Virus record (IMG/VR): IMGVR_UViG_3300005512_000004 | Length of the DNA stretch: 20,000 bases | Strand: one strand, 5' to 3' | From: an uncultured virus (IMG/VR IMGVR_UViG_3300005512_000004) | Taxonomy: Duplodnaviria; Heunggongvirae; Uroviricota; Caudoviricetes | Part shown: positions 716-19,680 of the stretch, in pieces | Numbering within the stretch: the first letter of the stretch is position 1 | How the letters are laid out: each line of letters opens with the position of its first letter | Translations under genes and position numbers: made by a program | Notes under the pieces: generated by a model | What the model was told of the DNA's origin: nothing | Database searches by the model: none | The model's input: only the letters and a program-made list of their open reading frames with translations

Positions 716-757
716 GCTGTCCTCCTTTCTTGTTAGCGTTAGCGCAAAACGCGCTTG

Positions 758-1936
758 TTATCCGTTCACTGCGTGGGCCGCACAGTACTTCCCTGCCTGC
801 GCGCAGCAGAAGACCGCGACCGCCGCCCAGAGGCTAGGCTCCGCTGCCACTACGAGCAGGGAGTAGCCGATTACGGAGCCCGCTGTGTAGGCGAGCTTCG
901 CGGCACCCTGCGTGTCGAACCCGCGCTTAGACGCCCACCTATCGCACAGGAACTCCCTGCGCTTTGACGCTGCCCACGCTAGGAGCAGCAGTGGCGCGCA
1001 AGGCTCTACCCACACGCTCACAACAGCTCCGAGCGCGACCACGCTCAAACCCACGCGATCACCATAGCGCCAGACCGCGCAGCGCTTGATCGCATTGGTT
1101 AAGTTGTACGTGAAGTGCTTCCCCGACACTCCCCACGCGATCATCGCGAGGCCACCCACGACGTCCACGCATGTCTGCGCGAACGTCCATCGGCGGGCTA
1201 GCTCTTCGCCTAGCCACCCGTTGAGCGCGATCGCGGCCACTGTGCCGCCGACCGCTGGGAGCTCCGCGAGCGTATTCACCCGTGCGTTGCGCCAGACCTC
1301 ACGAAGAACACTCAACTGTGGGCGCTCGAGCAAGCCATCTCTGTGGGCCCACCACAAGATGGTCGCGGTGGGGACGAGCTCGGCTAGAAGCGTGCCGAGA
1401 GACGCCCCCCTCGCTCCCATCCTCTCCCCGATCACCAGCCAGTACGTCAGCGCGACGTTACTGACTGCGACCACCCATGCGAGTCGGATACGTGCCTTGA
1501 CGCGTACCTGGGCGGTCCCGAGGGCCATGTAGCCCACGACACCGACTCTGATGAGCAGGCTCGCAGGCGCGGCGTAGGCGAGGTAGTCCGCCATGCCGGG
1601 CAGACCTACTACATCCTCAAGTCCGCTCGACGCGGCCCATAGAACGCCGTAGAGCGCCGTGCTCAAGAGCGCCCAATAGTAGTTGCTCGAGAGCAACGCG
1701 GCCGAGCGTGAGGCCTCCTCCGAGGCCTCGGCGAGCTTCTTCGCCACGCCGCTCGGGGCGCGTACCAGGCGCCCGATCGCGCCGAGCGCGAGCGCGGCGA
1801 CGCTGGCACCCGCTACCTTATCCACCTCGCCCGCCCCTGCGAGGATGAAGATGTCGGTGATGAGTAGGAGCAGCTCGGGAAGCCACTCCAGATACTGCGT
1901 ACGCAGCTCCTCTTTGTGTGTTTGTTTTCTTTCCAT
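758..1936 (-). CDS. Polytopic membrane protein, MATE/MOP-family transporter-like
   Basis: Many hydrophobic segments; SNVALTYWLVIGERMGARGASLGTLLAE resembles the MATE N-x-x-L...G-x-x-GAA-x-AT motif; start placed at the ATG following GAGG. Confidence 0.6.
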   Translation of the reverse strand: MERKQTHKEELRTQYLEWLPELLLLITDIFILAGAGEVDKVAGASVAALALGAIGRLVRAPSGVAKKLAEASEEASRSAALLSSNYYWALLSTALYGVLWAASSGLEDVVGLPGMADYLAYAAPASLLIRVGVVGYMALGTAQVRVKARIRLAWVVAVSNVALTYWLVIGERMGARGASLGTLLAELVPTATILWWAHRDGLLERPQLSVLREVWRNARVNTLAELPAVGGTVAAIALNGWLGEELARRWTFAQTCVDVVGGLAMIAWGVSGKHFTYNLTNAIKRCAVWRYGDRVGLSVVALGAVVSVWVEPCAPLLLLAWAASKRREFLCDRWASKRGFDTQGAAKLAYTAGSVIGYSLLVVAAEPSLWAAVAVFCCAQAGKYCAAHAVNG

Positions 1937-1978
1937 GTATATCCTCATCTCCACAAATCGTGGTTATGTGTGTATTTA

Positions 1979-2005
1979 CTTATCACGAATACACGCATTA
2001 TCTTG
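1979..2005 (-). promoter_or_regulatory. Putative promoter CAA-N16-GTGATAAG upstream of the MATE-like gene
   Basis: Same motif and spacing at five other intergenic sites; AT-rich divergent region. Confidence 0.5.
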
Positions 2006-2040
2006 TTAGGTTACGGGCACTTAGTGATAGTAATAGTTCT

Positions 2041-2067
2041 CAATCTCGAGTTACTTCTTGTGATAAT
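2041..2067 (+). promoter_or_regulatory. Putative promoter CAA-N16-GTGATAAT driving the ligase operon
   Basis: Followed by hairpin GCGC-GAGTT-GCGC (2082-2094) and AAGGAGG SD. Confidence 0.55.
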
Positions 2068-2115
2068 AAAGCACCAACACCGCGCGAGTTGCGCCACACC
2101 TACAAGGAGGACAGC

Positions 2116-2388
2116 ATGGCTGGACTAGACACGAGCCCGCTGCGCAACATGGTCATTGCGTACATGAATAAAGACCCAATGGAGCTCAACCAATACGAGA
2201 ACGAGATGCTCAACGAGCTCGTCACCATGATGGTGGACTTTGATGCGCGCTTTGTGCAGTACCCGCTCATATGTGCGAAGGTGCTCGCGGACTGCATAGA
2301 GGCACACTCGGTCGACCTCACCGCGCTCAAAGCGTGCGTGGACCTCCTCGCCTCAGTCGATCAACAGTTAAGGAGGTACAAATGTTGA
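2116..2388 (+). CDS. Hypothetical protein (90 aa)
   Basis: AAGGAGG SD; overlaps the ligase start. Confidence 0.75.
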   Translation: MAGLDTSPLRNMVIAYMNKDPMELNQYENEMLNELVTMMVDFDARFVQYPLICAKVLADCIEAHSVDLTALKACVDLLASVDQQLRRYKC

Positions 2389-3209
2389 CGCTCGCACACA
2401 CCTACCGGCAGACAGACAACGTCGACGGATATTGGGTGCAGCCCAAGCTCGACGGCGTCCGCTGTGTCTTCGACGGTAAAACGTTCTTGTCGCGCGCAGG
2501 GAAGCCCTTCGAGCCGCCCGCTGAGTGGTACGAGGGTAGCGCGCTCGCAGCACTGCAGAAGGAGGTCGGAGCGCCGATAGACGGAGAGCTGGTGTGCTTC
2601 CTTCAAATCGCGCCTCTTCGTGGTGGCCCTTTCGGGAAGCAGCTCGTGAACTTTAACAGCGTCGTGTCTGTCGTGCGAAGGAAGGAGAATGCGGACATGT
2701 CTGGGTGGGCCGAGATCGCGTTCGTCGCGTTCGACGTCGTGACGGACGAGCCCTGCTCCTATCGAGAGCGGTACAGCCTGTTGGAGAAGGCCAGGACAGA
2801 CCACTCCTTGTTCATCATGCCTATCGTCGACGTAGTTGACTCGGGAGACGATCAATATGGTTGGTTGGCAAGCGCGGCGCTGAACGGGTGGGAAGGCGTG
2901 ATGCTCCGTAATCCAGACGCGCCTTACGAGCGGAAACGCACACGCAACCTGCTCAAGGTAAAGCCCGTGGCGGATGAGGAGTTCGTTGTCACGGGCATGC
3001 AGGCGGGCACAGGCAAGCACGCGGGGCGCATGGGCGCGTTGCTGTGTCAGCGTGATGGGAAAGAGTTTAAGGTCGGTACGGGGTTCACAGACGCTGACCG
3101 CGAGTTGCGGGATTGGGTCGGAAAAACCATCACCGTGGAATACTTCGAGCTTACGCCTCGAGGTGTACCACGTCACCCACGCTTCAAGGGGGTACGAGAC
3201 TATGAGTAA
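2382..3209 (+). CDS. lig: ATP-dependent DNA ligase (minimal adenylation + OB domain)
   Basis: Motif I QPKLDGVR, DGEL, FVAFD, WEGVMLR, LLKVK, VGTGF, PRHPRF; TAAGGAGG SD before ATG 2382. Confidence 0.95.
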   Translation: MLTLAHTYRQTDNVDGYWVQPKLDGVRCVFDGKTFLSRAGKPFEPPAEWYEGSALAALQKEVGAPIDGELVCFLQIAPLRGGPFGKQLVNFNSVVSVVRRKENADMSGWAEIAFVAFDVVTDEPCSYRERYSLLEKARTDHSLFIMPIVDVVDSGDDQYGWLASAALNGWEGVMLRNPDAPYERKRTRNLLKVKPVADEEFVVTGMQAGTGKHAGRMGALLCQRDGKEFKVGTGFTDADRELRDWVGKTITVEYFELTPRGVPRHPRFKGVRDYE

Positions 3210-3408
3210 AGTCAGTCGGGGAGAGACGGACTACGGCACCGAGGTCATCTACATCGAAAAGGACGATAAGCTCTGGGAGGTCAAGGCGACCGACGAGGGT
3301 ATCCTCATCGATGTGTATACGGGCAACGGGAATGAGTGGTTGGACTCGCCCTTCTCGGCCACTTGGGATGAGATGCTTGCTCCCAAGGATGACGACAAAA
3401 ACTCGTAG
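3202..3408 (+). CDS. Hypothetical acidic protein (68 aa)
   Basis: ATG overlaps the ligase end; MSKVSRGETDYGTEVIYIEK... Confidence 0.7.
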   Translation: MSKVSRGETDYGTEVIYIEKDDKLWEVKATDEGILIDVYTGNGNEWLDSPFSATWDEMLAPKDDDKNS

Positions 3409-3447
3409 GTTTTTGCGATAATAGAGTACCAACGCGTGTTGCGTTTA
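3396..3447 (+). promoter_or_regulatory. Putative promoter CAA-N16-GCGATAAT plus leader hairpin AACGC-GTGTT-GCGTT (3431-3445)
   Basis: Matches the repeated promoter and leader elements elsewhere in the window. Confidence 0.6.
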
Positions 3448-3465
3448 CCTACTACGGAGGAAATC

Positions 3466-3687
3466 ATGGATACAAACTACCTCAAGGCGTGCGTCACGCT
3501 CGGAAACGCGCTGAGCGCGGCGCGATATTATGGCATCGCGGGTGTCAAGCGCGCGTTGGACGGCGCGATGATCCGTGTCACCGACAAGCCCGCCACTGCG
3601 GACGAGCGCCACTTCGCGGGCTATGTCCGCACGCTCGTCCACGACCTTAGCCTTAGGCTCCCGGAGGAGTACTCATGGTTGAGCTGA
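3466..3687 (+). CDS. Hypothetical protein (73 aa)
   Basis: GGAGG SD before ATG 3466. Confidence 0.75.
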   Translation: MDTNYLKACVTLGNALSAARYYGIAGVKRALDGAMIRVTDKPATADERHFAGYVRTLVHDLSLRLPEEYSWLS

Positions 3688-3983
3688 TCCGCAGCGCTGC
3701 TGCCCGTTATGGTCGTCCCGCCTGGAACGACCGCGTCACCCAAGACGGCAACGCCATGGCCGTCCTGTCCATCACGCGCAACGACCTTCTCGCGCAGGGG
3801 TGGCCGCGAGAGAGCGTCGACAGCGTCATCCGAGAGGCCAAGACCCTCGACTACGACGGTCTCGTCAGCCTCTGCTTGTCTGTCTACGCGCCTCCCGTGT
3901 CGGACGACGATTGGGATGATTGGGGCGACGATTGGGACGACGACGACTGGGATGATGACGAGGAGGACAGCCATGACGATTGA
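3675..3983 (+). CDS. Hypothetical protein with a very acidic Asp/Trp-repeat tail
   Basis: GGAGGAG SD; C-terminus DDDWDDWGDDWDDDDWDDDEEDSHDD. Confidence 0.75.
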   Translation: MVELIRSAAARYGRPAWNDRVTQDGNAMAVLSITRNDLLAQGWPRESVDSVIREAKTLDYDGLVSLCLSVYAPPVSDDDWDDWGDDWDDDDWDDDEEDSHDD

Positions 3984-4230
3984 CGAGCTGGAGTACGAGA
4001 AATGGGAGAACGCGCTCGACTTCGCGCTCACCGAGCGCTTTATGCTCGGGCTCAGCGACATGGTCGACGCACCCACGCGCGCACACTACGACAGCGGCCT
4101 CAGCGTCGCGGAGGCGGCGTGGGAGGTGGCGCAGAACGATGAGATGTTCGCGCCTTACCTCGAGGAGTACGCGTGGGAGCTCGAGGCCTTCGAGGCGAGC
4201 GCGGAGAGATACCTCGCCGAGAATGACTGA
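3973..4230 (+). CDS. Small acidic phage protein (85 aa; possibly DUF5419-like)
   Basis: AGGAGG SD; GLSDMVDAPTRAHYDSGLSVAEAA resembles the D-L-P-D...Y-D-x-G-x-S-P-x-E-A pattern. Confidence 0.65.
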   Translation: MTIDELEYEKWENALDFALTERFMLGLSDMVDAPTRAHYDSGLSVAEAAWEVAQNDEMFAPYLEEYAWELEAFEASAERYLAEND

Positions 4231-4279
4231 CTAATTCCAACAAGACACGAGTTGTGTCGATATACACAAGGAGAGCCAT

Positions 4280-4648
4280 ATGAGCACTATCACCTTTCGT
4301 ACAAAAGACCTCGCGGCCGCTGCCGCGGCGTTATTCAAAGCAGACGCCCCGAAAGCCCGCATCGCCGCGGAGCTGATCAACAAGGCTGTGACTGCGGAGC
4401 AGCGTATCCGAGGTCTCGAAAAGGATCTCGCAGGTGCGATGGCGGAGATCAAGAAGCTCCGCGAGATCACCGCAGGCGCAGAGGCGCATAGCTTGATGCG
4501 CGTTAAGCGCGAAAAGGAGTTGTGCGCTCGCATCGACGACATGAACGTCGAGCGCCTCAATCTCATCCGAGACTACGAGCAGAAGCTCGACAAGAGCGAC
4601 GAGACGCTCAAGCGCGCTATCGCGCTGATCGAGCACCTGACCAAGTAG
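4280..4648 (+). CDS. Coiled-coil hypothetical protein
   Basis: AAGGAG SD; heptad pattern; preceded by hairpin GACAC-GAGTT-GTGTC (4244-4258). Confidence 0.8.
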   Translation: MSTITFRTKDLAAAAAALFKADAPKARIAAELINKAVTAEQRIRGLEKDLAGAMAEIKKLREITAGAEAHSLMRVKREKELCARIDDMNVERLNLIRDYEQKLDKSDETLKRAIALIEHLTK

Positions 4649-4659
4649 GTAGGTGCGCC

Positions 4660-5154
4660 TTCAACATCTTCTATCTGTCACAGTGTCCTCGCCAAGCAGC
4701 GGAGTGGCACTGTGATAAACATGTCCGGAAGATGATATTGGAGACCGCTCAGATGCTGGTGACCGCGCGCGTGTTGCGTGGCGAGTTACCACGGGAGACA
4801 AAGTACTTCACTTTTAGGATGCGCAATCATCCGTGCAGCAAGTGGGTACGTCTCGACCGAGCAGGTTTCGAGTACGCATCTGACCTTTTGCGTGCCTTGT
4901 GTGACGAATACACGTATCGTTTCGACAAGGTGCACGCGACCGAGCGGTTCTACTATGGCGAGTTGCCGCATGTAGACTTGGACACGCTATTCCCATATCG
5001 CAGACGACGTAAACCCGTTCCGCTTGCGACGGGAGAGCAACACCCCCTCGACGCTGACCCCGTTGAGGTGTACAGGAGATACTATGAAACCAAACAACAA
5101 CGATGGGAGCTCAAGTGGAGCAGACGAGAACAACCACGATGGTTTTCGGGTTAA
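4660..5154 (+). CDS. Pyrimidine dimer DNA glycosylase / endonuclease V-like protein; expected ATG is replaced by TTC
   Basis: NIFYL...A.WHCDKHVRKMILETAQML...NHPCSKW...LCDEYTYRFDKVH...DPVEVYRRYY...K is the signature of this family. Confidence 0.8.
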   Translation, partial: FNIFYLSQCPRQAAEWHCDKHVRKMILETAQMLVTARVLRGELPRETKYFTFRMRNHPCSKWVRLDRAGFEYASDLLRALCDEYTYRFDKVHATERFYYGELPHVDLDTLFPYRRRRKPVPLATGEQHPLDADPVEVYRRYYETKQQRWELKWSRREQPRWFSG

Positions 5155-5338
5155 GCTCGACCCATTCTTGAAGACTCAAGAGAGTCTGCCGCAGCAGATC
5201 GACCCTAACGCACTCTACGTTGGCCTGCCTACAGGTTGGGTCGAGATGTTCGAGTGTGCAGCCGATCTCGAGGGCGTCCCCGAGAACCACTATATGATGA
5301 TCAAGAGCGGTGGTGAGCTGCTCAAGATGCTTAAGTAG
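5084..5338 (+). CDS. Hypothetical protein (84 aa)
   Basis: AGGAG SD before ATG 5084; overlaps the upstream gene by 71 nt. Confidence 0.55.
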   Translation: MKPNNNDGSSSGADENNHDGFRVKLDPFLKTQESLPQQIDPNALYVGLPTGWVEMFECAADLEGVPENHYMMIKSGGELLKMLK

Positions 5339-5349
5339 GCGGAGGAAAG

Positions 5350-6417
5350 ATGAGTATTAAAGAGGTCACAACGATTTCGGTCACGCCTATGATCGGCAAA
5401 GCAGGCCACTGGTCCATCGCGAGCGTGACATGTATGTACAGCGACTTGCAAAAGTTGGTCACGCATAACGTCGAAAACGACAGCGGAGATCTACGACGCT
5501 CGAAGTCGTACTTCGACAGAGATCTGCCCATCCAGCGCAAGCCAGTCCGTGCTCGCGTAGATGCGCTTAAGGCGTATATCTCTTCGAAGATTGATACGGA
5601 GAGCGGCACAGGTGCGTTGCCTGCGCTCACGCTTGTTGTTATCGGGAAAGTATCGGTCGACTCGGATGACGGGACGCTCAACATCAAGCTCGAGGGGGAG
5701 GATGGGCGCTGCCTTATCGCAGACGGCATGGGGAGGTACACAGCCCTTACAGAGCTCTACCAGGAGCAGGGCCTCGACCTGCCTATAGCGGTCACGATCT
5801 TCGCCAATCGACGCGCGAAGATGTATGAGGTCGCGCAGCTACTGCACGACATCAATCGCTACAGTACAAACATGCGGCCTGTGACAGCAGCGAAGTTTAT
5901 GCACACAGGTCCGTTCGCGGATATGCACGAGCGACTGGAGTCGCTGGTGAACGCGGCAGATCTTTCCGTGCCTCGTACGTGGCTGATCGCGGATGGACCA
6001 CTCATGCTTATCAAAGCGCCCGAGCTTGGTAACGCGCTCAAGGTCGTCGACAAGTACGACGTAAAAGAAGGAGTCTCTGACATGTCGAGACTAGAGCGCT
6101 TTGACATACCTGTCGCGATAGGGCGCGCGGTCGTTGAGTACCCTGCTGTCCTCGACGTGAGGTACGTCTTCCAGGCTGTGCTACATGGTATAGGAGCGGG
6201 CTTCGCGAGCAATCGCCCCTTTAAGATCCATGTAGACCCGCGTATCTTCACACTGCCCACTCCGCATAAGAACAAGGGGTGGGGCGACCTACAACGGTGC
6301 GTTACCGTTGTTCCTCAAGATGACGCATGCCTTCGTTGTGGCGAAGAGCTCACGGACGACAACCGCGCGTTCGATAATGAGCGTGTGTGCGACTACTGCG
6401 ACCATGTAGCCCGCTAA
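5350..6417 (+). CDS. DGQHR/DndB-like (ParB-superfamily) protein with a C-terminal Zn-ribbon
   Basis: IQR...RVDALKAYI...LPALTL...IADGMGR..AL...IAVTIF...QLLHDIN pattern; CLRC...CDYC at the C-terminus; GGAGG SD. Confidence 0.75.
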   Translation: MSIKEVTTISVTPMIGKAGHWSIASVTCMYSDLQKLVTHNVENDSGDLRRSKSYFDRDLPIQRKPVRARVDALKAYISSKIDTESGTGALPALTLVVIGKVSVDSDDGTLNIKLEGEDGRCLIADGMGRYTALTELYQEQGLDLPIAVTIFANRRAKMYEVAQLLHDINRYSTNMRPVTAAKFMHTGPFADMHERLESLVNAADLSVPRTWLIADGPLMLIKAPELGNALKVVDKYDVKEGVSDMSRLERFDIPVAIGRAVVEYPAVLDVRYVFQAVLHGIGAGFASNRPFKIHVDPRIFTLPTPHKNKGWGDLQRCVTVVPQDDACLRCGEELTDDNRAFDNERVCDYCDHVAR

Positions 6418-6427
6418 AGGAGACACT

Positions 6428-6745
6428 ATGATTATCCGTTTTCATGACGACGAGTTTCCAGAGATGACCCCCGCTGAGCTCTGCGCGGCGCTGAAGCGTC
6501 GACGCGCTGACGTCAACTTTCGTATTGATGGTGACACGGTGGTGGGCGCCTATCTCGGAGGGAAGATGCGGGCGAGTGTGTGCGATGGGAAACTCGATGT
6601 AGCGCTCGAGATCTCGCCCTTTGTCTCCTCCAGCGTCGTAGAGACAGTCAAGGCACAGGGCATCGTTCTCCTTGAGTGCATCAAGGCGAGCGGTACGACC
6701 GTACCTCCCATGGACTTCGAGACAGTGGAGGTGCCCGATGCGTAA
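6428..6745 (+). CDS. Hypothetical protein (105 aa)
   Basis: AAAGGAG SD. Confidence 0.75.
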   Translation: MIIRFHDDEFPEMTPAELCAALKRRRADVNFRIDGDTVVGAYLGGKMRASVCDGKLDVALEISPFVSSSVVETVKAQGIVLLECIKASGTTVPPMDFETVEVPDA

Positions 6746-6935
6746 GCAACACTGGGTGGACCAGATGACCAATATCGCACGAGACTTCGAGGACGCGCAC
6801 GTGAAGGCGTTCTTATTCAAGCGGATTGGTGGCCACGTGACCTGCCTCGTCACCGTTGTCAACGCCGATGGGAAGGAGGTCACGTGGGAGCTCGTCGATG
6901 ACGGCGTGAGCACTGACCTCTGGCGGAAGGTCTAG
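6738..6935 (+). CDS. Hypothetical protein (65 aa)
   Basis: GGAGGT SD; overlaps the upstream stop; ends in a CTAG shared with the convergent gene. Confidence 0.7.
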   Translation: MRKQHWVDQMTNIARDFEDAHVKAFLFKRIGGHVTCLVTVVNADGKEVTWELVDDGVSTDLWRKV

Positions 6936-7966: not shown

Positions 7967-9101
7967 CGTGGTCTCCATAGAATTCGGATACGCCCCAGTT
8001 AAATTTATCATCGTAGCTGTCGCGTATGTGGTTAATCTCGCGCCTGTTAAGTCTGACGTTAGGTTTCGTCGCAGCTTCGTGCGACTTTACGATTTTCTGC
8101 GCACGGTTACGCAGCGCTGGCGAGCTCTGTGGCGAGCGAAGGATGTCTTGTGCGCGTGTCACAGCGCGTGTGGGCGCGTTACCTCCGAACACGACGCCTT
8201 TGCCTTCGAGCTGACTGAGCATGCGACTTGACCCTGGGAAGACCTGTTTCATGTGATCTAGCTCATTGACGCGTAGGTTCTCTAGCTCTTCGCTAATACC
8301 TTGAGCGTCACGTCCTGTCACAGTGCGCGCGATGTTGAGATCGCGGATAGGCAGCGTCGCGTTCATATGGTTGTTGCCTGGGCCTAGTATATGTCTGGTA
8401 GGCGTAGCTTTTGTGGCAGAGACCCCGTGCTTTCTTTCGAAGCGCTTTGCCTCTAGGTACTCGTTAAACTCGTGCAGCGCGGTCGTAGCTCGGCGCTCTG
8501 GTGTCGTGTGTTCGTACCCGTGCATGTAAATCTTGCCATCTCTGGGGTCGAAGTGCGCTACGCCGCCCCGTGCCATCTGCCGGCCTAGATCATTTCGGGC
8601 TTCTATGAGCGCCCTCTCGGTTTGGCGTGGGGCTATCTTGAGGGCGAGATCGTCAACCCTTTGCGCGGACTTACCGCGCTTGACGCGTATGTTAGCGTTT
8701 CGCATCCTATCGACACTACGAGGTAGATAGTCTCGCCAAGCGCGAGGCTCACCCGCTTCTTGTGCCTCACGCTTAGCCTTGTCGACCCACGAACGCATAT
8801 TCGCCTTACCCTCGCTCATGGTCTTAAGGTCGTTTGGGTTTATGTAGGGTTGTTTGCTTCGCTCGAGCGCCCTTTCGTAGACGTGACGATCCACAGCGCG
8901 TAGCCCGTCGAGCGGGTTTTGTCGCAGGTCCGCGACACGCTTACGGAGCTTGTCTATCTCTGCGGGGTCGGGTGCGGGCATAGGGCGGTAGCCTTTTACA
9001 CGCCCGCGGAGTTCGCGATTATTATATACGAGCTTACGTGCAGCTCGCCTTAGGACGCTGGTGTCGACGGCGTGTTTTTGCATGAATACGCGGCCAAGCA
9101 T
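7953..9101 (-). CDS. Basic hypothetical protein with divergent leader (MLGRVFMQKHA)
   Basis: Long ORF coupled to the upstream stop (TAACATG); Arg/Lys-rich; ALHEFNE motif. Confidence 0.8.
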   Translation of the reverse strand: MLGRVFMQKHAVDTSVLRRAARKLVYNNRELRGRVKGYRPMPAPDPAEIDKLRKRVADLRQNPLDGLRAVDRHVYERALERSKQPYINPNDLKTMSEGKANMRSWVDKAKREAQEAGEPRAWRDYLPRSVDRMRNANIRVKRGKSAQRVDDLALKIAPRQTERALIEARNDLGRQMARGGVAHFDPRDGKIYMHGYEHTTPERRATTALHEFNEYLEAKRFERKHGVSATKATPTRHILGPGNNHMNATLPIRDLNIARTVTGRDAQGISEELENLRVNELDHMKQVFPGSSRMLSQLEGKGVVFGGNAPTRAVTRAQDILRSPQSSPALRNRAQKIVKSHEAATKPNVRLNRREINHIRDSYDDKFNWGVSEFYGDHDALL

Positions 9102-12090: not shown

Positions 12091-12121
12091 AGGCGTAGCT
12101 AAATTTTTTTGGGGAGTACCT
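12091..12121 (+). repeat. Intergenic cassette repeat copy 1
   Basis: AGGCGTAGCTAAATTTTTTTGGGGAGTACCT immediately before ATG. Confidence 0.9.
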
Positions 12122-12355: not shown

Positions 12356-12385
12356 GCGTAGCTAAATTTTTTTTGAGGAGTATCC
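12354..12385 (+). repeat. Intergenic cassette repeat copy 2
   Basis: AGGCGTAGCTAAATTTTTTTTGAGGAGTATCC; overlaps the upstream TAG. Confidence 0.9.
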
Positions 12386-12964: not shown

Positions 12965-12984
12965 ATTTTTTTTGGGGAGTACCT
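12953..12984 (+). repeat. Intergenic cassette repeat copy 3
   Basis: AGGCGTAGCTAAATTTTTTTTGGGGAGTACCT; encodes the last codons and TAA of the upstream gene. Confidence 0.9.
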
Positions 12985-14004: not shown

Positions 14005-14030
14005 CGCGAATTCAGCTGGAAGTTGCTCAT
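13995..14030 (-). pseudogene. Truncated paralog (MSNFQLNSRQK*) of the gene at 14729-14998
   Basis: AAAGGAG SD and leader hairpin 14051-14065; matches the N-terminus (L)SNFQLNARQR of the intact gene. Confidence 0.6.
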
Positions 14031-14048
14031 AGTGTTCTCCTTTGGCGA

Positions 14049-14098
14049 TAAACGCAACGCGCGTTGTTATACTGCGTACGTGAGCAGCGCGCTCACGT
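14049..14098 (-). promoter_or_regulatory. Two pentaloop hairpins (ACGTGAGC-GCGCT-GCTCACGT; AACGC-GCGTT-GCGTT)
   Basis: Repeated element. Confidence 0.7.
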
Positions 14099-14104
14099 GT
14101 GGAC

Positions 14105-14142
14105 TAGTCCGTAGCTTTGTCGGCACGAACGAGGCAGCGCGC
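14105..14142. repeat. 38-bp copy of 15062-15099
   Basis: 36/38 identical. Confidence 0.85.
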
Positions 14143-14194
14143 TCTTGGGTGCTGGCGGGCTCGCCGCAGGATACGCAGCGAACAACTAGTGCGA

Positions 14195-14257
14195 CTACTC
14201 GTCCATAGATCCGATGATGTACAGGATGAGTAGCACGACAATGATTGTTTTAATCAC
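14195..14257 (-). CDS. Putative 20-aa hydrophobic micro-protein (MIKTIIVVLLILYIIGSMDE)
   Basis: AGGAGGT 8 nt upstream of GTG; overlaps the upstream stop. Confidence 0.5.
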   Translation of the reverse strand: MIKTIIVVLLILYIIGSMDE

Positions 14258-14648
14258 GACGCCACACCTCCTGTAGCATCTCCTCGACCTTCTCCGCCCC
14301 ATCGGTCCACGTCAACGCCTTCAAGATGGTGCGCGCGTTGCTCCGCGCTTGTGTGTCACACTCGACCCCTGCGCGATCTTCGAGATCGCGCACGTAGAGC
14401 GCGTGGGCGAATACAGTTCCACCGTGTATGCTTCTGGGGGCAGCGAGCCGCCCACACATGTGGTAGAGCGCCATCTCGCCCTCAGGCGCGGCCTCGCCTG
14501 TGATGAGCTCGAATACCACCTTGCGCTGGCCCGGGCTGAGCGCCCACATTTCGGGGTGCCAACACTCCGCATCACTGCGGTGTGCATCTCGAGCTCGTGT
14601 TACGTCGTGGCAGATGTCTGCTGCGAGTCTATAAAAATTAATGTCCAT
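14250..14648 (-). CDS. Hypothetical protein (132 aa)
   Basis: GGAGG SD before MDINFYRL; leader hairpin 14669-14683. Confidence 0.75.
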   Translation of the reverse strand: MDINFYRLAADICHDVTRARDAHRSDAECWHPEMWALSPGQRKVVFELITGEAAPEGEMALYHMCGRLAAPRSIHGGTVFAHALYVRDLEDRAGVECDTQARSNARTILKALTWTDGAEKVEEMLQEVWRRD

Positions 14649-14666
14649 GTTTCCTCCGTCGATTGA

Positions 14667-14716
14667 TAAACGCAACACGCGTTGTTGATGATACCGCGCA
14701 CATGAGCAACGCGCTC
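14667..14716 (-). promoter_or_regulatory. Two pentaloop hairpins (GAGC-GCGTT-GCTC; AACGC-GTGTT-GCGTT)
   Basis: Repeated element. Confidence 0.7.
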
Positions 14717-14728
14717 GTACGTCTCCTC

Positions 14729-14998
14729 TCAGTACTTGGCGGGGAGCTGACACTCCCCCGGGTCTCCTGAGACGGCAATCATGATGATGCACGTCGGCGA
14801 GATGTACGCCCACTCGCCGCGACGCACCTCCCCGTAGTAGGGGTTGTCGGGTATAGGCGTGCGGTCGAGACGCACCCACGGGAGGATCCCGTTACTCCCC
14901 CACATGGTGGTGCGGCGGAAGTGCGCGATGTCGCGCTTGGTGTACCCAAGCTTGCGCAGGAAACGCCTCTGCCGTGCGTTGAGCTGGAAGTTACTCAG
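14729..14998 (-). CDS. Hypothetical protein (89 aa), probable CTG start
   Basis: AAAGGAG SD 5 nt before CTG; the paralog remnant has ATG at the same position. Confidence 0.65.
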   Translation of the reverse strand: MSNFQLNARQRRFLRKLGYTKRDIAHFRRTTMWGSNGILPWVRLDRTPIPDNPYYGEVRRGEWAYISPTCIIMIAVSGDPGECQLPAKY

Positions 14999-15015
14999 GG
15001 GTACTCCTTTCGTAG

Positions 15016-15033
15016 TTAACGCAACACGCGTTG
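15016..15033 (-). promoter_or_regulatory. Leader hairpin CAACGCGTGTTGCGTTAA
   Basis: 28 bp identical to 19337-19364. Confidence 0.75.
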
Positions 15034-15060
15034 CCGATGTGCTCTTACCACAAAGATGGA

Positions 15061-15627
15061 TTAGTCCGTAGCTTTGTCGGCACGGACGAGGCAACGCGCG
15101 CGTGCTCGACGGTCGAGCTCTTTGTCGTCCTCGAGGATGCACTCCAGCTCGTATGCGCGTGCCCAATCGTCCGCCTCCTGGGCCTCCGCGCATGCCTTAA
15201 CGAGCTCGATCATGACACCCGTCCGCTCGTAGTCGAGCGGGGCGATCTCCTCTTGCCACGCCTCGTTATTTTTTCGGTAGAGGCGGCGGCCGTCGAAGTC
15301 GGACAGCCAGGTCACTCCATCCTCGTCCGTCTCCCACGTGACCGCGGGCCCGCTGCCGATGCTGATGCGTCCTTGTGGCTCAGCAACGACAAACTCGCAC
15401 TGGGTGTAGTACTCGCCTATGGGCGAGATCACGTTGCGCGGATGGCGCACCATGCAACCCACCGAATGAATGTGTGCGTCTGAGCGCACGTCTGAGACGA
15501 GCATCAGCTCGAGCGTCTCCTGGCCTTGATGCCCAGTGACGTACCACTCCTGCCACGCACCATTGGGGAACTCCTGGCGCGCCTTTTCCCCGCTCCCCCA
15601 ATACTGCCAAAGTGTGCTCTTTTGCAT
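15061..15627 (-). CDS. Hypothetical protein (188 aa)
   Basis: TAAGGAG SD; leader hairpin upstream. Confidence 0.8.
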   Translation of the reverse strand: MQKSTLWQYWGSGEKARQEFPNGAWQEWYVTGHQGQETLELMLVSDVRSDAHIHSVGCMVRHPRNVISPIGEYYTQCEFVVAEPQGRISIGSGPAVTWETDEDGVTWLSDFDGRRLYRKNNEAWQEEIAPLDYERTGVMIELVKACAEAQEADDWARAYELECILEDDKELDRRARARCLVRADKATD

Positions 15628-15643
15628 ATCTCTCCTTAGTGGG

Positions 15644-15731
15644 TAAACGCAACACGCGTTGTTAGGTACGTTATTATCACGCGAAGAGCTAAAAATTTGC
15701 GCTCTGGGCCGCGCATGTGAGCAACGCGCTC
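15644..15731 (-). promoter_or_regulatory. Hairpin (15719-15731), promoter GCGCAA-N16-GTGATAAT (15673-15702) and leader hairpin (15646-15660)
   Basis: About 45 bp nearly identical to 19633-19677. Confidence 0.7.
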
Positions 15732-15743
15732 GCGCGGCTTTTC

Positions 15744-16196
15744 TTACTCGTCCTCGTCGTTACCCTCGTCAGCATCTTCACACGTAGACGAGCAGTAGGG
15801 CGGGACGGTGTCGTGATCTTCGGTATCGAAGTCGTACCCGCAGGTCGTACAGGTGCAGAGCCGATCCTCGTTCAAGATCGGGTAGTCCGCTAAGCGCTCA
15901 AGCAGCTCTTTCGCCTTTGTGAGCGCGGGCGTGTCTCGCTCGACGACGATATAGTCGAGGTGCCCGACAGCGAAGTGTCCGAAGCGCACTGTCGTGTACG
16001 CGCCTTCAGCCTTCTCAAGTGCGCTACACATCTCGTCGAAGTTTATGCTGTCGAGCGCGTCCGCGTCGCGATGCGTAGAGAGGACAACATAGTCATCACC
16101 CCAATCGTCCAAGACCGCGTCATAATGGAGCGCGAAGTGTCCGTTGCTGTCACGCCCCATCTCTTCGACGAGCTCACGTAGGGTCTGTAGCTCCAT
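15744..16196 (-). CDS. Conserved phage hypothetical protein with a C-terminal Cys cluster
   Basis: RDADAL..INF...FGHFAVG...LADYPILNE pattern; CTTC...YCSSTC. Confidence 0.75.
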   Translation of the reverse strand: MELQTLRELVEEMGRDSNGHFALHYDAVLDDWGDDYVVLSTHRDADALDSINFDEMCSALEKAEGAYTTVRFGHFAVGHLDYIVVERDTPALTKAKELLERLADYPILNEDRLCTCTTCGYDFDTEDHDTVPPYCSSTCEDADEGNDEDE

Positions 16197-16198
16197 AG

Positions 16199-16570
16199 TC
16201 ACCACCAACTGTAGTAGACGACCTTCCAGCCGTCGTTAAGCGCAGCGCGCGCGTCTTCGATAAACTGTGCGACGAGCTCCTCGTTGTGTTTACGGTGAGA
16301 GCCATCGTCATCGCGGACGTTCCAGAAGAACCCCTCCCGATCTTGGAGCTTTTGATAACACTCCGCGAGGTCGTCTAACGTGTCCGTATCAAGCGGCAGC
16401 TCGATACAGTTAAACTCCTGCTCACCACCACGATCGTGATACAGGTCCTCCATGTAGGCCTGCAGGGGTGAGAACTTTCGCCAATAGGCGATCTCCTCAC
16501 GCTCTTCTTTTTCGCCCTCGTTGTCTGTTAGGACGGGGCGCACCTTAAACGCGTATTGATCGAGTCCCAT
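16199..16570 (-). CDS. Conserved phage hypothetical protein (MGLDQY...YWRK family)
   Basis: AAAGGAG SD; MGLDQYA...EIAYWRK...FNC...GFFW...VVYYSWW. Confidence 0.85.
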   Translation of the reverse strand: MGLDQYAFKVRPVLTDNEGEKEEREEIAYWRKFSPLQAYMEDLYHDRGGEQEFNCIELPLDTDTLDDLAECYQKLQDREGFFWNVRDDDGSHRKHNEELVAQFIEDARAALNDGWKVVYYSWW

Positions 16571-16629
16571 GGTATCTCCTTTGACATGGCATGTGTGCGT
16601 CGTTATATACGCGCCCGAAGGAGGTGCGT

Positions 16630-16704
16630 ATGACGCTTGATACAAAGATCTTTATCGCCAACACGGCGATATGGTTGACGATTATGGGGATTCACTCTCT
16701 GTAA
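16630..16704 (+). CDS. Putative antisense 24-aa hydrophobic peptide
   Basis: TTGACA-N17-TATATA (16581-16609), AAGGAGGT SD, MTLDTKIFIANTAIWLTIMGIHSL. Confidence 0.4.
   Translation: MTLDTKIFIANTAIWLTIMGIHSL
16653..16671 (-). promoter_or_regulatory. Pentaloop hairpin TATCGCC-GTGTT-GGCGATA
   Basis: Same loop as the leader hairpins with a different perfect 7-bp stem. Confidence 0.65.
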
Positions 16705-16987
16705 ACACCCACTCGTGGAGCCAGTCTCCCCAAAACTCTTGGGTAAATCCTGCCTGCTTGAGAGCCTGTTCGAGTAGATCGTAGTAGGTATCGAAGAGCG
16801 CCTGCGACGCGGGAGTGTACTCGGTCATACCACTCACCTCGCACGGCGGCTCGTGGTGCTCTGTGATCTCCGGGTGCAGGGTTACGAGCATCTTGTGCGC
16901 CATCTCACAGACGTCAGACATCTGTACCGCTTCACGTGAAGCATGGCACGCCACGATGAACTCGTTGAGCATACACTCTTCTGTCAT
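16682..16987 (-). CDS. Hypothetical acidic protein (101 aa)
   Basis: ATGA overlap with the upstream gene. Confidence 0.7.
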   Translation of the reverse strand: MTEECMLNEFIVACHASREAVQMSDVCEMAHKMLVTLHPEITEHHEPPCEVSGMTEYTPASQALFDTYYDLLEQALKQAGFTQEFWGDWLHEWVFTESESP

Positions 16988-17616
16988 CTCTCGTACCTCT
17001 CGATAAACTCGTCAAGGGTCTCGGGGAACCCCTCGAGGTCTTTCTCTGTGAGAGTGCCTTCCTCGAGATCACACGCCAAAGCGTCTTCCCCATGGATAGC
17101 ATAGACAAGCTCGTTATAAGGTCCGCACGCATCGAGCTCGATCTCCCCCTTCGGGTCGATACGCTGGATACCTCCGAAGTCCATGCCCGGCTCTTCATAC
17201 ACCGCTTCGACAGAGACGCCGTACGTGCGAGCGACGACGCGCAGCCCCGATAGAGGAGGCGCCCACGCGCTCTCGAACGTAATCGAGACGTGGCCAGGGG
17301 CACCGTCATGTACGTCGTACGATGGGTCCCATTTCGTCCCGATGTATCTCGACAGCTCATGGAACGCGCCACCGATGTCAATATCCTGTTCACGGAAGTC
17401 GACCGATGATAGTAGCCTCCCGAAGAGGTAGCGCGCCGAGCCTGTGTTCTCCTCCGTGTGTCCTGTCGTGACGGCGTCGAAGTATTCGGGCACACCCATG
17501 TCGTACGTGTACCCTTGTGCGATGCCAACGCGCTCATCGGTAAGAATCTGCCTGATCACGTCGAGAGCGTCCTCGGAGCCTGTAAACTTCACGCTGTTAC
17601 TGCACCAGTTTGGCAT
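16984..17616 (-). CDS. YubB ferredoxin-like / DUF1281-type protein
   Basis: MPNWCSN...GTKWD...FESAWAPP...YEEPG; AAAGGAG SD. Confidence 0.8.
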   Translation of the reverse strand: MPNWCSNSVKFTGSEDALDVIRQILTDERVGIAQGYTYDMGVPEYFDAVTTGHTEENTGSARYLFGRLLSSVDFREQDIDIGGAFHELSRYIGTKWDPSYDVHDGAPGHVSITFESAWAPPLSGLRVVARTYGVSVEAVYEEPGMDFGGIQRIDPKGEIELDACGPYNELVYAIHGEDALACDLEEGTLTEKDLEGFPETLDEFIERYER

Positions 17617-17899
17617 TTTGCTCTCCTTTTACTGGGATGGTCGTCAGGTCATGCACCCTACGCAACTGCGGTACGAGTGTATGATTTCGTAGGTTGGTGG
17701 GGTCGTACGTTACACGTACTAGTGTGAGAGGGTCCGTGGGCGGAGCATAGCAATCAATGATCTCTGCGAGATCATTGATCTCGCTCTGAGTAAACTCCGC
17801 CATGTTGATAAGACGCGGAACAGAACCCGTGTCCGCGAAACAGTAAAAAGCATCGCATAGATGTGCCTGTAGCGGGTCACTTTCAGTACAATCCGGCAT
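17597..17899 (-). CDS. Hypothetical protein (100 aa)
   Basis: Starts 2 nt after the upstream stop; weak support otherwise. Confidence 0.45.
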   Translation of the reverse strand: MPDCTESDPLQAHLCDAFYCFADTGSVPRLINMAEFTQSEINDLAEIIDCYAPPTDPLTLVRVTYDPTNLRNHTLVPQLRRVHDLTTIPVKGEQNAKLVQ

Positions 17900-17901
17900 G
17901 A

Positions 17902-18147
17902 TTAAATCCTCGGAATCGTGGGGAGTTTGTTGTCTGTGGTTTGCAGAACGCCTGCATCGTTACCCGCCTCGTCACTCATAGGCCAGACGAGCGTACCGTC
18001 GCTGAGCTCGACGACGAGCGTGCTACGCACCCAGCCGACCTCCTGCAGCTCTTCCGCCGTCATATAGCGAACAGACACGATCGTCTTGCCGACGAGCAAC
18101 TCGCTCGCCTTCTTCGTCCACGTCTCGGTGACATTACTTCTGCCCAT
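17902..18147 (-). CDS. Conserved phage hypothetical protein (81 aa)
   Basis: GAGGAG SD; LVGKTIVSVRYMT.EE...GW...DG...PMSD.AGNDAG. Confidence 0.8.
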   Translation of the reverse strand: MGRSNVTETWTKKASELLVGKTIVSVRYMTAEELQEVGWVRSTLVVELSDGTLVWPMSDEAGNDAGVLQTTDNKLPTIPRI

Positions 18148-18529
18148 GTGTGTACTCCTCGTACGTATCGTCGTCACGCGACGTGAGAACGCGCTCCTCG
18201 TGGATGTCGTAGCCGCGTGACATCCAGGCCTGTGGCTTGATATTCTCTACCCAATCTTCGAAGCTCGGGATCTTACCCCCGCAGTCCTCTCGGACGTGCT
18301 GCTCCCCGATTAACCGCACGGGCACCTTCTTGCCATCGCTGTTCACGATGAAGTGCCCGAATACCTTCTCGCACTCGAAGATGCCGAAGGCGTGATGCCG
18401 CAACGCGCGGTGTCGGAAGTTGGCGACAGCGATCTTGGACTCGTCGAACCAGTCGTGAATGGCCTGGTAGTCCTCGGGCTTCCCGCCCCACCTCTTTACG
18501 CATGAGTTTGCGTGATATAACGGATTCAT
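18134..18529 (-). CDS. DUF6915-like protein
   Basis: HA.S.V.RWGG..EDY..IHDWFDESK...RHRALRHH..GIFE.E..FG...NSDGK.VPVR.IGEQHV.ED. Confidence 0.85.
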   Translation of the reverse strand: MNPLYHANSCVKRWGGKPEDYQAIHDWFDESKIAVANFRHRALRHHAFGIFECEKVFGHFIVNSDGKKVPVRLIGEQHVREDCGGKIPSFEDWVENIKPQAWMSRGYDIHEERVLTSRDDDTYEEYTHGQK

Positions 18530-19326
18530 GCCTTCTCCTCACCGAGTTCCTCGTAGTGGTTGTGTGCTAGTCGAGAGGTGACCTCGTGCACATACACGTT
18601 GAAGTCTACTTCCCACGCCCCGTTGTTTCTGCTGAACTCGTACGTCCCATGCCCGCCATCGTTGTTGTACCAGTCCACCCCGCACCCCCCTAGCGCCGCA
18701 TAGACGTGCTCCTCGATCGCCACGAAAACCGTGCGCGCGGTGTAGGTGCAGGTCGTGATGCACGCGCCCGCCTCCGGGTTGTAGCGCTCAGAACAGACGT
18801 AAACCGGGATCTCTGGGAATACGATCTCCGGCTTATTCGACACACCGTTAATCGTGTACGTATACGTCTTGGGCGTAATGTTCTCCTCCCCCACAAAAAG
18901 CTCGATGTGCTCGATTTGCCCGCTGTCACCTCCTCCGTAGAACTCCACGGTCACATACGTCACGCCGTAGGTGAGGTGCATGAGATCGAGGGTCCGGGAC
19001 ATGCTCATATCCAAGATCTCCCGGAATCGTGTGGCGTATTCCTCGAGACCGTCGGGGCGGTCGGAGGTGACCCACATGACGTGCGGGTTCGTCTCTGAGC
19101 CCGCGTTCTTCTCGATGACGAAGAAGTGCATCTTTATCTCCGCCTTGCCCTTCGTGGCCTCGATCAGCGCGATCTCAGCGCACACGAGCTCGTCATCGTC
19201 ACTCAAGACGCGGGCGCGCAGCGAGTCGATATACGTCGTGACCAGCTTCGGGTCGCTGTTCAGGGGCTTGTCGATGTTGTTGATGCGGACGGTGCCGGAG
19301 ATGATGCTGTCGTTGTTGAAGTACAT
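18526..19326 (-). CDS. Protein with a C-terminal DUF6878-like domain
   Basis: F.GGGDSGQIE...DWYNNDGG.G; start placed at the ATG downstream of leader hairpin 19349-19363. Confidence 0.75.
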   Translation of the reverse strand: MYFNNDSIISGTVRINNIDKPLNSDPKLVTTYIDSLRARVLSDDDELVCAEIALIEATKGKAEIKMHFFVIEKNAGSETNPHVMWVTSDRPDGLEEYATRFREILDMSMSRTLDLMHLTYGVTYVTVEFYGGGDSGQIEHIELFVGEENITPKTYTYTINGVSNKPEIVFPEIPVYVCSERYNPEAGACITTCTYTARTVFVAIEEHVYAALGGCGVDWYNNDGGHGTYEFSRNNGAWEVDFNVYVHEVTSRLAHNHYEELGEEKA

Positions 19327-19346
19327 ATACGTATAGCCTTTCGTAG

Positions 19347-19364
19347 TTAACGCAACACGCGTTG
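19347..19364 (-). promoter_or_regulatory. Leader hairpin CAACGCGTGTTGCGTTAA
   Basis: Repeated element. Confidence 0.75.
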
Positions 19365-19382
19365 ATGTTTCATGGTCGAGGA

Positions 19383-19625
19383 TCACTGAAGTCGGCTTAG
19401 TGTCCTTCGCTGCTCCGCGTCCCTCACCGCCTGCTCGACAGACATGTCTCTGTCGGGACTCACATAACCGATGGCCTCCAACAAGGACGAGGCTTCTCGG
19501 TTAAGCTCGTCGTAGCGTTCGCGCAACTCGCTCAATTTCTCTTGGCGAGCGCGGGCCTGCGCACGAGCGACGACCTCAGGGTCGAGCGTACTCAAATCCA
19601 TCTGCGGCCTAAATGCGTCAGACAT
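19383..19625 (-). CDS. Hypothetical coiled-coil protein (80 aa)
   Basis: TAAGGAGG SD. Confidence 0.75.
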   Translation of the reverse strand: MSDAFRPQMDLSTLDPEVVARAQARARQEKLSELRERYDELNREASSLLEAIGYVSPDRDMSVEQAVRDAEQRRTLSRLQ

Positions 19626-19643
19626 GATTTCCTCCTTAGTGAG

Positions 19644-19680
19644 TAAACGCAACGCGCGTTGTTAGGTATGTTATTATAGC
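19644..19680 (-). promoter_or_regulatory. GCTATAAT -10-like box plus leader hairpin AACGC-GCGTT-GCGTT
   Basis: Near copy of 15644-15680. Confidence 0.65.

Follow-up and report, generated by a model that had tools for sequence, protein, structure and literature searches.

The 20,000-nucleotide stretch of DNA analysed here (the window) is part of the genome of an uncultured virus of the Caudoviricetes (IMG/VR record IMGVR_UViG_3300005512_000004), and everything reported below for this phage refers to these 20 kb. Its G+C content ranges from 51 to 63% when computed in 1-kb windows, and positions 4090-12172 are identical to an 8-kb metagenome contig. From left to right, one finds a single minus-strand gene, an operon of small genes on the plus strand, a block of genes named here MFYE after the first residues of most of their products, and a second operon of small genes on the minus strand. 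Scattered over the leaders, the gene ends and the coding sequences of the small genes is a short hairpin with a variable stem and a five-base loop that reads GNGTT in the DNA and GNGUU in the transcript. This hairpin, which had been noticed by a first-pass annotation made from the sequence alone, is the subject of the present analysis.

The GNGTT hairpin is strongly enriched in the window. With a C-G closing pair and a stem of at least four Watson-Crick pairs, 15 copies are present against 0.26 expected (maximum 3 in 500 dinucleotide shuffles), and with at least five pairs 10 copies against 0.08. When any closing pair is admitted, the count rises to 20 for stems of at least four Watson-Crick pairs, compared with 0.69 (maximum 4) in dinucleotide shuffles. 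Pentaloop hairpins of every loop sequence taken together number 129 versus 89.6 ± 9.1 in shuffles, and GNGTT is by far the commonest loop among them (GAGTT 7, GCGTT 7, GTGTT 6), followed by GCGCT (4) and GTTTT (3). As the 20 copies represent 14 distinct stem-loop sequences, this excess is independent of the seven duplicated leaders that share an AACGC stem. Across these 14 stems, located in unrelated flanks, the loop positions G1, G3, U4 and U5 are invariant, and since the unrelated flanks include different open reading frames (ORFs), the common loop is convergent and not inherited. Among the 13 distinct sense sequences, both sides change at all five stem positions with 93.8% of the cells paired, figures that are purely descriptive as the rows had been chosen for pairing. 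All seven AACGC-GYGTT-GCGTT copies listed in the first-pass annotation were recovered, as were the eleven other hairpins that it named (the one given at 18093 being the core of a longer stem), together with five copies absent from its list (944-, 5609+, 6291+, 16729- and 17942-). The enrichment over shuffled controls and the strand bias by which it proposed to judge the motif were both observed, and the enrichment outlasts the collapse of the duplicates.

Orientation of the hairpins follows transcription. Indeed, 19 of the 20 copies are on the sense strand and only one (9005+) is antisense, across four switches in the direction of transcription. The same polarity is obtained in a test made without selection on pairing, in which 13 of 101 sense GNGTT pentamers are flanked by five Watson-Crick pairs versus 0 of 74 antisense ones, while the bare pentamer outside hairpins shows no strand bias (82 vs 73). 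Likewise, a covariance model built from the 13 distinct sense sequences detected, when its training rows are set aside, 12 sense sites and a single antisense one with E values of 4.1 or less, including variant loops at 741, 1444, 14081 and 16239. The hairpin is moreover restricted to one gene class: all 11 gaps of at least 15 nt beside the small-gene operons contain one (10 GNGTT and 1 GTTTT), compared with none of the five gaps of the MFYE block, and the sense strand of this block (6932-14004) is devoid of GNGTT hairpins. The annotation's remark that the MFYE genes have none thus holds for their sense strand, the antisense copy at 9005 lying within one of them. This copy is possibly a chance occurrence or an antisense feature inside gene 7953-9101; in the interval 9005-9026, the minus strand has a TATAAT 3 nt upstream of the complement of the hairpin and the plus strand scores as terminator-like. 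Overall, with stems that vary yet stay paired, a fixed loop and an orientation that tracks transcription, the hairpin is, as had been proposed, a structure-plus-loop element marking one gene class.

The copies occupy three settings. In the leader setting, nine copies, seven with the stem AACGC and one each with the unrelated stems GCGC (2082) and GACAC (4244), end 18-22 nt before the start codon in every case, and a G-poor spacer of 8-10 nt separates them from the Shine-Dalgarno (SD) sequence; the location just upstream of SD sites claimed for the seven AACGC copies is hence correct, with a weak SD (AAAGG) at 19349. Among the 15 TATAAT, GATAAT or CATAAT hexamers of the window, five are found 8-14 nt upstream of a hairpin, versus about 0.05 expected by chance according to our own rough estimate. 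They precede four leaders (boxes at 2062, 3417, 15673 and 19673) and the hairpin at 16653 (box at 16681), and if transcription starts about 7 nt after the box, these five hairpins would lie only about 0-7 nt from the 5' end. A scan with the sigma-70 consensus found promoter-like sites no commoner in the window than in shuffles and did not call the hairpin cassettes, because these have no good -35 element. In the second setting, five copies, two of them with variant loops, are located 2-13 nt past a stop codon (741, 14078, 14704, 15719 and 16653). Most small genes that lack a hairpin leader overlap the gene before them or directly adjoin it, so that the leader hairpin appears where translational coupling is broken. 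Within ORFs, the third setting, the small-gene operons contain seven copies with at least four Watson-Crick pairs against 0.67 when synonymous codons are shuffled within each gene, with none of 500 shuffles reaching seven; these copies are thus under selection at synonymous sites. Two further ORF-internal copies contain G-U pairs. None of the sense GNGTT hairpins is terminator-like in the sense orientation and their flanks have no T run.

Part of this distribution arose by duplication. The seven AACGC cassettes fall into three subtypes according to their 3' flank, and the segments 13990-14180 and 14960-15125, both on the minus strand, are duplicates with a mean column identity of 79%. The duplicated stretch, around the hairpins at 14051 and 15018, runs from the end of the upstream gene through the hairpin and the SD into the first codons; the copy at 14051 terminates in an 11-codon remnant, and the longer copy has CTG in place of the ATG of the remnant. 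If started at this CTG, the full-length duplicate (the product of 14729-14998) would have an N-terminus that by eye is rich in arginine. Such a segmental duplication suggests that recombination between cassettes, as proposed for the PeSL elements of T4-type phages, probably spread the AACGC stem.

Table 1. Location of the hairpins, gene blocks and genes with a shared N-terminus in the window, and of GCACA-loop hairpins in sister contigs (L122 to L124)
Feature	Position	Strand	Context
Leader hairpin GCGC-GAGTT-GCGC	2082..2094	+	GATAAT 2062-2067, 14 nt upstream; start codon 2116, 21 nt downstream
Leader hairpin AACGC-GTGTT-GCGTT	3431..3445	+	GATAAT 3417-3422, 8 nt upstream; start codon 3466, 20 nt downstream
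Leader hairpin GACAC-GAGTT-GTGTC	4244..4258	+	start codon 4280, 21 nt downstream
Leader hairpin AACGC-GCGTT-GCGTT	14051..14065	-	21 nt before 11-codon remnant (MSNFQLNSRQK*); in segmental duplicate of the 15018 region
Leader hairpin AACGC-GTGTT-GCGTT	14669..14683	-	start codon 14648, 20 nt downstream
Leader hairpin AACGC-GTGTT-GCGTT	15018..15032	-	19 nt before CTG 14998, which aligns with the ATG of the paralogous remnant
Leader hairpin AACGC-GTGTT-GCGTT	15646..15660	-	GATAAT 15673-15678, 12 nt upstream; start codon 15627, 18 nt downstream
Leader hairpin AACGC-GTGTT-GCGTT	19349..19363	-	gap after gene 19383-19625; start codon 19326, 22 nt downstream; no TATAAT-like box seen
Leader hairpin AACGC-GCGTT-GCGTT	19646..19660	-	TATAAT 19673-19678, 12 nt upstream; start codon 19625, 20 nt downstream
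Variant loop AGCGC-GTTTT-GCGCT	741..755	-	2 nt past stop codon of gene 758-1936
Variant loop ACGTGAGC-GCGCT-GCTCACGT	14078..14098	-	shortly past stop codon; core homologous to 14704 and 15719
Post-stop hairpin GAGC-GCGTT-GCTC	14704..14716	-	about 13 nt past stop of gene 14729-14998
Post-stop hairpin GAGC-GCGTT-GCTC	15719..15731	-	about 12 nt past stop of gene 15744-16208; then terminator-like stem and T run, 15715-15698
Post-stop hairpin TATCGCC-GTGTT-GGCGATA	16653..16671	-	CATAAT 16681-16686, 9 nt upstream (overlaps stop of 16682-16987); start codon 16570, 82 nt downstream
ORF-internal hairpin GCGCAGG-GAGTT-CCTGTGC, one G-U pair	944..962	-	gene 758-1936
ORF-internal hairpin CCGC-GAGTT-GCGG	3098..3110	+	DNA ligase gene 2382-3209
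ORF-internal hairpin CGCGC-GTGTT-GCGTG, one G-U pair	4766..4780	+	gene 4645-5154
ORF-internal hairpin CAGGT-GCGTT-GCCTG, U-G closing pair	5609..5623	+	gene 5350-6417
ORF-internal hairpin ACAACGGT-GCGTT-ACCGTTGT, 8 bp	6291..6311	+	gene 5350-6417
ORF-internal hairpin CCCAA-GAGTT-TTGGG	16729..16743	-	gene 16682-16987
ORF-internal hairpin TGCAG-GCGTT-CTGCA	17942..17956	-	gene 17902-18177
ORF-internal hairpin GGCGAGC-GAGTT-GCTCGTC, core CGAGC/GCTCG	18091..18109	-	gene 17902-18177
ORF-internal hairpin CCGC-GCGTT-GCGG	18398..18410	-	DUF6915 gene 18134-18529
Antisense hairpin CGCG-GAGTT-CGCG	9005..9017	+	inside MFYE-block gene 7953-9101 (-); left out of the tag class
Gene 758-1936	758-1936	-	block 1 of the window
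Small-gene operon	2116-6935	+	encodes ATP-dependent DNA ligase, PHROG-624 'DNA binding protein' and DndB/DGQHR-like protein
MFYE block	6932-14004		mostly proteins starting MFYEVLMEK or close variant
Small-gene operon	14029-19625	-	
Shared-N-terminus gene	6932-7966	-	
Shared-N-terminus gene	9103-10236	-	
Shared-N-terminus gene	10388-10846	-	
Shared-N-terminus gene	12122-12355	+	
Shared-N-terminus gene	12386-12964	+	
Shared-N-terminus gene	12985-14004	+	
GCACA-loop hairpins, different stems	L123 459-474, 3358-3375	sense	
GCACA-loop hairpin, different stem	L122 234-254	sense	
GCACA-loop hairpin, different stem	L124 1328-1344	sense	

Regarding the coding content, 33 ORFs were scanned against the Pfam and PHROGs profiles and 25 against NCBIfam, and the majority of the window's products have no family assignment in these collections. 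The sole functions that could be named among the scanned ORFs are a DNA ligase, the DndB/DGQHR-like protein, the PHROG 'DNA binding protein', a flavodoxin-like fold and several DUFs, and a tRNA search of the window gave none. From the size of their genes, their content and their TATAAT-like boxes, the small-gene operons would be of an early type. The product of 5350-6417 matches DndB in Pfam (3.6e-9) and DGQHR in NCBIfam (1e-6, under the curated cut-off) and carries a C-terminal cysteine cluster, which hints at DNA modification or anti-defence functions in its operon. The minus-strand gene 758-1936, located in the kilobase of highest G+C content (63%), codes for a polytopic membrane protein of 392 residues with a weak match to the MATE family (E 3e-5); it diverges from the operon starting at 2116, and the gap between the two has a GATAAT on each strand (1997- and 2062+). 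In the second operon, the 20-codon ORF 14187-14249 (-) encodes a hydrophobic peptide (MIKTIIVVLLILYIIGSMDE), and its GTG start overlaps the stop of gene 14250-14648.

In the MFYE block, six otherwise dissimilar proteins have in common an N-terminus reading MFYEVLMEK(R/K)A, with the variants MFYDVLMEKKA, MFYEKLA and MHFYEKLAEKK. One of the six weakly matches the start of Pfam DUF5836 (E 0.001), one has the flavodoxin-like fold, and in the 152-residue MFYD protein of 10388-10846 a unit of about 45 residues occurs twice (...LRAML.T...TPF.GGMASS.KSKLPMSNPPG.RA...). The L-M-E|K stretch of these N-termini resembles the L/I-x-E signals by which T4 internal proteins are cleaved and targeted to the capsid. 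Three MFYE genes are preceded by a second type of leader cassette that comprises no hairpin (GGCGTAGCTAAATTTTTTTT(G)RGGAGTAYCY followed by ATG; approximately 12090-12121, 12353-12385 and 12952-12984, plus strand) and that may be the promoter of another temporal class; its TAAAT core is reminiscent of T4-type late promoters.

Relatives of the window proved to be scarce. A DNA search of 50,697 phage records was without a match, scans of viral contigs seeded with proteins gave nothing that could be confirmed, and a search with the back-translated MFYEVLMEK pattern had no match. The bare 15-mer of the AACGC hairpin has at least 120 single-copy loci, as predicted by chance, and a search for the cassette together with its SD retrieved one unrelated viral contig and, from bacterial genomes of many different phyla, 38 hits in single copy. 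A metagenome scan identified, besides the window's own 8-kb fragment, three short sister contigs coding for proteins with 44-48% amino acid identity to the product of 9103-10236. Each of them possesses one orthologous CGTC-GCGTT-GACG hairpin. They also have four sense hairpins with different stems of at least five pairs and loops containing GCACA, against 0.22 in 500 shuffles, a comparison that is only indicative as the GCACA motif was picked post hoc. One of these hairpins stands in the same leader layout as in the window (TATAAT, 13 nt, hairpin, 9 nt, AAGGAG, 9 nt, ATG), another about 10 nt past a stop codon and another inside an ORF. By eye, the contig L123 also contains a repeated promoter-like text, GCAAAA...GATAA(C/T/G) followed by GAG(G)TGAGCAGAGAGGCA-like sequence, at about 1457-1520, 2490-2550, 3800-3860 and 5690-5750.

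Because the polarity of the hairpins follows transcription and copies are maintained at synonymous sites, RNA is the most economical active form. As an isolated structure, the AACGC hairpin has a predicted energy of -4.2 kcal/mol, and the other stems of 4-5 bp range from -3.7 to -6.6 kcal/mol. Such weak stems argue against a purely thermodynamic role. Moreover, as the hairpin is displaced in several of the predicted leader folds and the loop bases are nonetheless invariant across unrelated flanks, it is the loop that seems to carry the function, and being the only conserved part, it can be viewed as a docking site; since its second base varies, simple pairing of the loop with another RNA is disfavoured. 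A tag at the RNA level, read through its loop and proper to one gene class, is hence likely. The motif may be undescribed, although the indications are slight: in two surveys of the pentaloops of natural RNAs, the main text has none of GUGUU, GCGUU and GAGUU, and a GNGUU-type hairpin class is not mentioned in the titles and abstract openings listed by literature searches, which concerned PeSL, N4, T4 post-transcriptional control and pentaloop surveys. An Rfam search of the whole window at E up to 1, a check advised by the first-pass annotation, matched none of the hairpins to a family and returned a single irrelevant hit, below threshold, at 1223-1279.

We propose, with confidence evenly divided, that the hairpin tags the sense-strand RNA of the small-gene messages and that a trans-acting factor reads its loop to act on this class. 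According to this proposal, these early-type transcripts would bear a cis-acting hairpin made of 4-8 pairs of free sequence and a G-N-G-U-U loop usually closed by C-G, which in the leaders would follow a fixed order: TATAAT-like box, 8-14 nt, hairpin, G-poor spacer of 8-10 nt, SD and start codon. Inside ORFs, it would be kept through synonymous codon choice. The loop would be the docking site of a factor, most likely a protein and more likely encoded by the phage than by the host, which would act post-transcriptionally wherever translational coupling is broken and could determine how stable the messenger RNA (mRNA) segment is or how it is processed, as well as how the neighbouring ribosome-binding site is used. 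We lean slightly towards protection or activation early in infection over targeted inactivation. The early class, RNA as the active form, the reader and its effect are all elements that we infer. An extended version of this proposal, possible but rather doubtful, would make the GNGUU hairpin the address label of a phage-encoded RNA-reading system sorting one temporal class of mRNAs to a common fate. A dedicated factor would then recognize the loop on leaders, gene ends and ORF interiors. The fate could for instance be shielding from the nucleases of the host or the phage, destruction at a set time, or delivery to ribosomes or to a compartment, and in the sister lineage a GCACA loop would occupy this layout. 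As a whole, the earlier interpretation is partly supported, namely in that the hairpin is defined by structure and loop and marks one gene class; a phage protein may bind it to control antitermination, translation, stability or localization.

Several observations weigh against a loop-read tag. In the three sister contigs, which are the only relatives found, the GNGTT loop is not enriched. Seven of the 20 copies are one duplicated cassette, in a region that is partly a segmental duplication, and five of the nine local minimum-free-energy folds of the leaders use alternative pairings in place of the hairpin. G-U pairs and A-C mismatches in the stems (3 vs 4) do not discriminate RNA from DNA, and none of the scanned ORFs belongs to an RNA-binding or to a nuclease or RNase family. 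Finally, the 5' ends, the early label and the transcription of these strands are deduced from gene orientation and from TATAAT-like boxes.

Among the rival explanations, a passive structure with no reader is unlikely yet deserves consideration. The hairpins would merely cap the 5' end or the untranslated gaps, as a barrier to 3' exonucleases and to nucleases that scan or depend on the 5' end, and keep the SD unstructured, the loop being conserved for folding. The five hairpins at or near a predicted 5' end, those directly past stop codons and the G-poor spacer ahead of the SD are all in line with such a role, and 5'-terminal stem-loops reportedly stabilize mRNA, as in the ompA leader studied by Emory, Bouvet and Belasco in 1992. 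However, a barrier requires no fixed loop, and here four loop bases are invariant over 14 stems; those of 4-5 bp are of low stability, and the hairpin is displaced in five of nine predicted leader folds. In addition, the ORF-internal copies are not at transcript ends, and the three loop sequences are missing from the survey texts mentioned above. Alternatively, the loop could be the target of a class-specific endoribonuclease, by analogy with T4 RegB or T7 RNase III, with cleavage serving to process the polycistrons or to shut off the messages at the late switch. This would fit hairpins that flank gene boundaries on both sides, and their distribution is similar to that of RegB sites, mostly in intergenic and initiation regions of early genes, with some in coding sequences and none in the other class (PMC3014915). 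The scanned ORFs include no RegB-like, barnase-like or other nuclease family, and RegB, according to the same source, reads an unpaired GGAG and is inhibited by secondary structure, a different mode of recognition; we hence consider this explanation distinctly unlikely.

Antitermination of the boxB type, in which an N-like protein with an arginine-rich motif would bind the pentaloop on the nascent leader and enable the polymerase to read through terminators, can draw on the size and shape of the element (15 nt, a 5-bp stem and a pentaloop directly downstream of promoter-like boxes), on the terminator-like site at 15715-15698 between cassettes and on the putative arginine-rich N-terminus of the 14729-14998 product. 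Lambda and P22 N proteins do recognize boxB via its pentaloop (PMC9074901). It is nevertheless highly improbable, since one site per operon would be enough, yet there are 20 copies, with seven inside ORFs and five after stop codons, and since the loop is unlike the boxB form. Furthermore, no boxA-like element shared beside the differing stems was seen by eye (no boxA pattern search was run), the scanned ORFs gave no N family hit in Pfam or NCBIfam, and a public protein atlas has the 14729-14998 product only from residue 31 onwards, without its arginine-rich part. An element acting as DNA is likewise improbable, whether as seven AACGC-N5-GCGTT operators of a dimeric regulator, overlapping the transcription start, or as extruded single-stranded signals such as N4-type promoters, priming sites or recombination sites. 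Between the -10-like box and the SD, AACGC and GCGTT do form a perfect inverted repeat with a 10-bp centre-to-centre distance; cassettes can be shuffled through such repeats, and the window does contain a segmental duplication. N4 early-promoter hairpins have a conserved loop and closing pair and some conserved stem bases, the remainder being free (PMC4496689). Against this, it is the arms that vary and the oriented spacer that is conserved, the opposite of what is expected from a double-stranded operator, which we therefore rejected; the orientation tracks transcription through four switches, unlike any replication or packaging polarity; and ORF-internal copies are kept at synonymous sites. 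Primase sites (GTT/GCT) displayed on the template of the lagging strand were dropped, and so were elements of the integron attC or REP type, because over 20 kb the copies change orientation four times along with transcription and the MFYE block is empty. Intrinsic terminators were rejected too, as the stems of 4-5 bp are weak, there is no T run and none was called in the sense orientation.

The temporal programmes of phages are usually explained by promoters, sigma factors and antiterminators. Here, the conserved part is not a promoter; it is a five-base RNA loop, present about once per cistron in one gene class and kept even inside coding sequences. If a reader of the loop exists, the pair would constitute a compact and orthogonal RNA tag-reader system, in the league of boxB-N or of the MS2 coat protein and its hairpin, and would open a new way into the sorting of messages by phages. 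That the sister contigs have this layout with another loop hints at a general phenomenon and, should the address-label reading be true, loop-coded mRNA class tags with co-evolving readers would represent a widespread and undescribed layer of phage gene control.

These features invite comparison with several known systems. boxB is read by N through its loop and not through the sequence of its stem, and boxB loops are GAAAA, GAAGA or GACAA. Like the lambdoid boxB, whose pentaloop is recognized by N (PMC9074901), the window hairpin combines a short stem and a pentaloop, placed in an early-type operon leader shortly after the promoter. The boxB pentaloop has been read as a GNRA fold, whereas the loops of the window are GAGUU, GCGUU or GUGUU, always ending in UU, and they occur in 20 or more copies versus one per operon, including after stop codons and inside ORFs, with no boxA partner seen by eye and no N homologue found among the scanned ORFs. 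Loop form, flank and copy number hence place the hairpin outside the boxB family. The second analogy drawn by the first-pass annotation, with the promoters of phage N4, also fails as a membership. N4 possesses a giant virion RNA polymerase, and its promoter hairpins have a stem of 5-7 bp and a loop of 3 nt. The 33 ORFs scanned against Pfam and PHROGs include no match to an RNA polymerase family. The resemblance lies in a short hairpin with a conserved loop and closing pair, a largely free stem and an association with early genes; those of N4, three in number at the genome end, are DNA hairpins on the template strand and are part of a conserved block from -17 to +1 (PMC4496689). The window loop, in contrast, has 5 nt, is conserved on the non-template strand and has flanks that are not conserved across stems, with a TATAAT-like box upstream, and an N4-type promoter was rejected on these grounds.

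The 5' stabilizers of the ompA type need a stable stem near the 5' end and no particular loop. The leader hairpins resemble them by their position ahead of the SD and, as predicted, a few nucleotides from the 5' end; they differ by their weak stems, their invariant loop and their many copies away from 5' ends. With T4 RegB, the likeness resides in a short mark on one temporal class, mostly in intergenic or initiation regions and sometimes in coding sequences, that is read by a phage factor, a putative one in the window; RegB shows that a phage can mark its early messages in this manner (PMC3014915). What RegB reads is the SD itself, as a linear and unpaired motif, whereas the mark considered here is carried by a hairpin loop and precedes the SD by 8-10 nt. 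As for the PeSLs of T4-type phages, they are repeated cassettes of promoter, stem-loop, SD and start between the small ORFan genes of variable regions, with copies similar enough to recombine (PMC4122927; see also PMC2839356), and the window, with its segmental duplication, its truncated paralogue and nine aligned leader cassettes, has the same repeated-cassette organization. In PeSLs, the stem-loop lies just upstream of the promoter, is interpreted as a terminator and has its consensus in the stem (PMC4122927). In the window, the hairpin stands 8-14 nt downstream of the -10-like box, within the leader, its loop is what is conserved and copies are found inside ORFs; the PeSL-like order is encountered only at 15719 with 15715-15698, upstream of the 15673 box. 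Strict PeSL identity is thus rejected by hairpin position and loop conservation, the repeated cassette being common to both, and we regard the GNGUU hairpin class as a variant of the known leader-hairpin systems.

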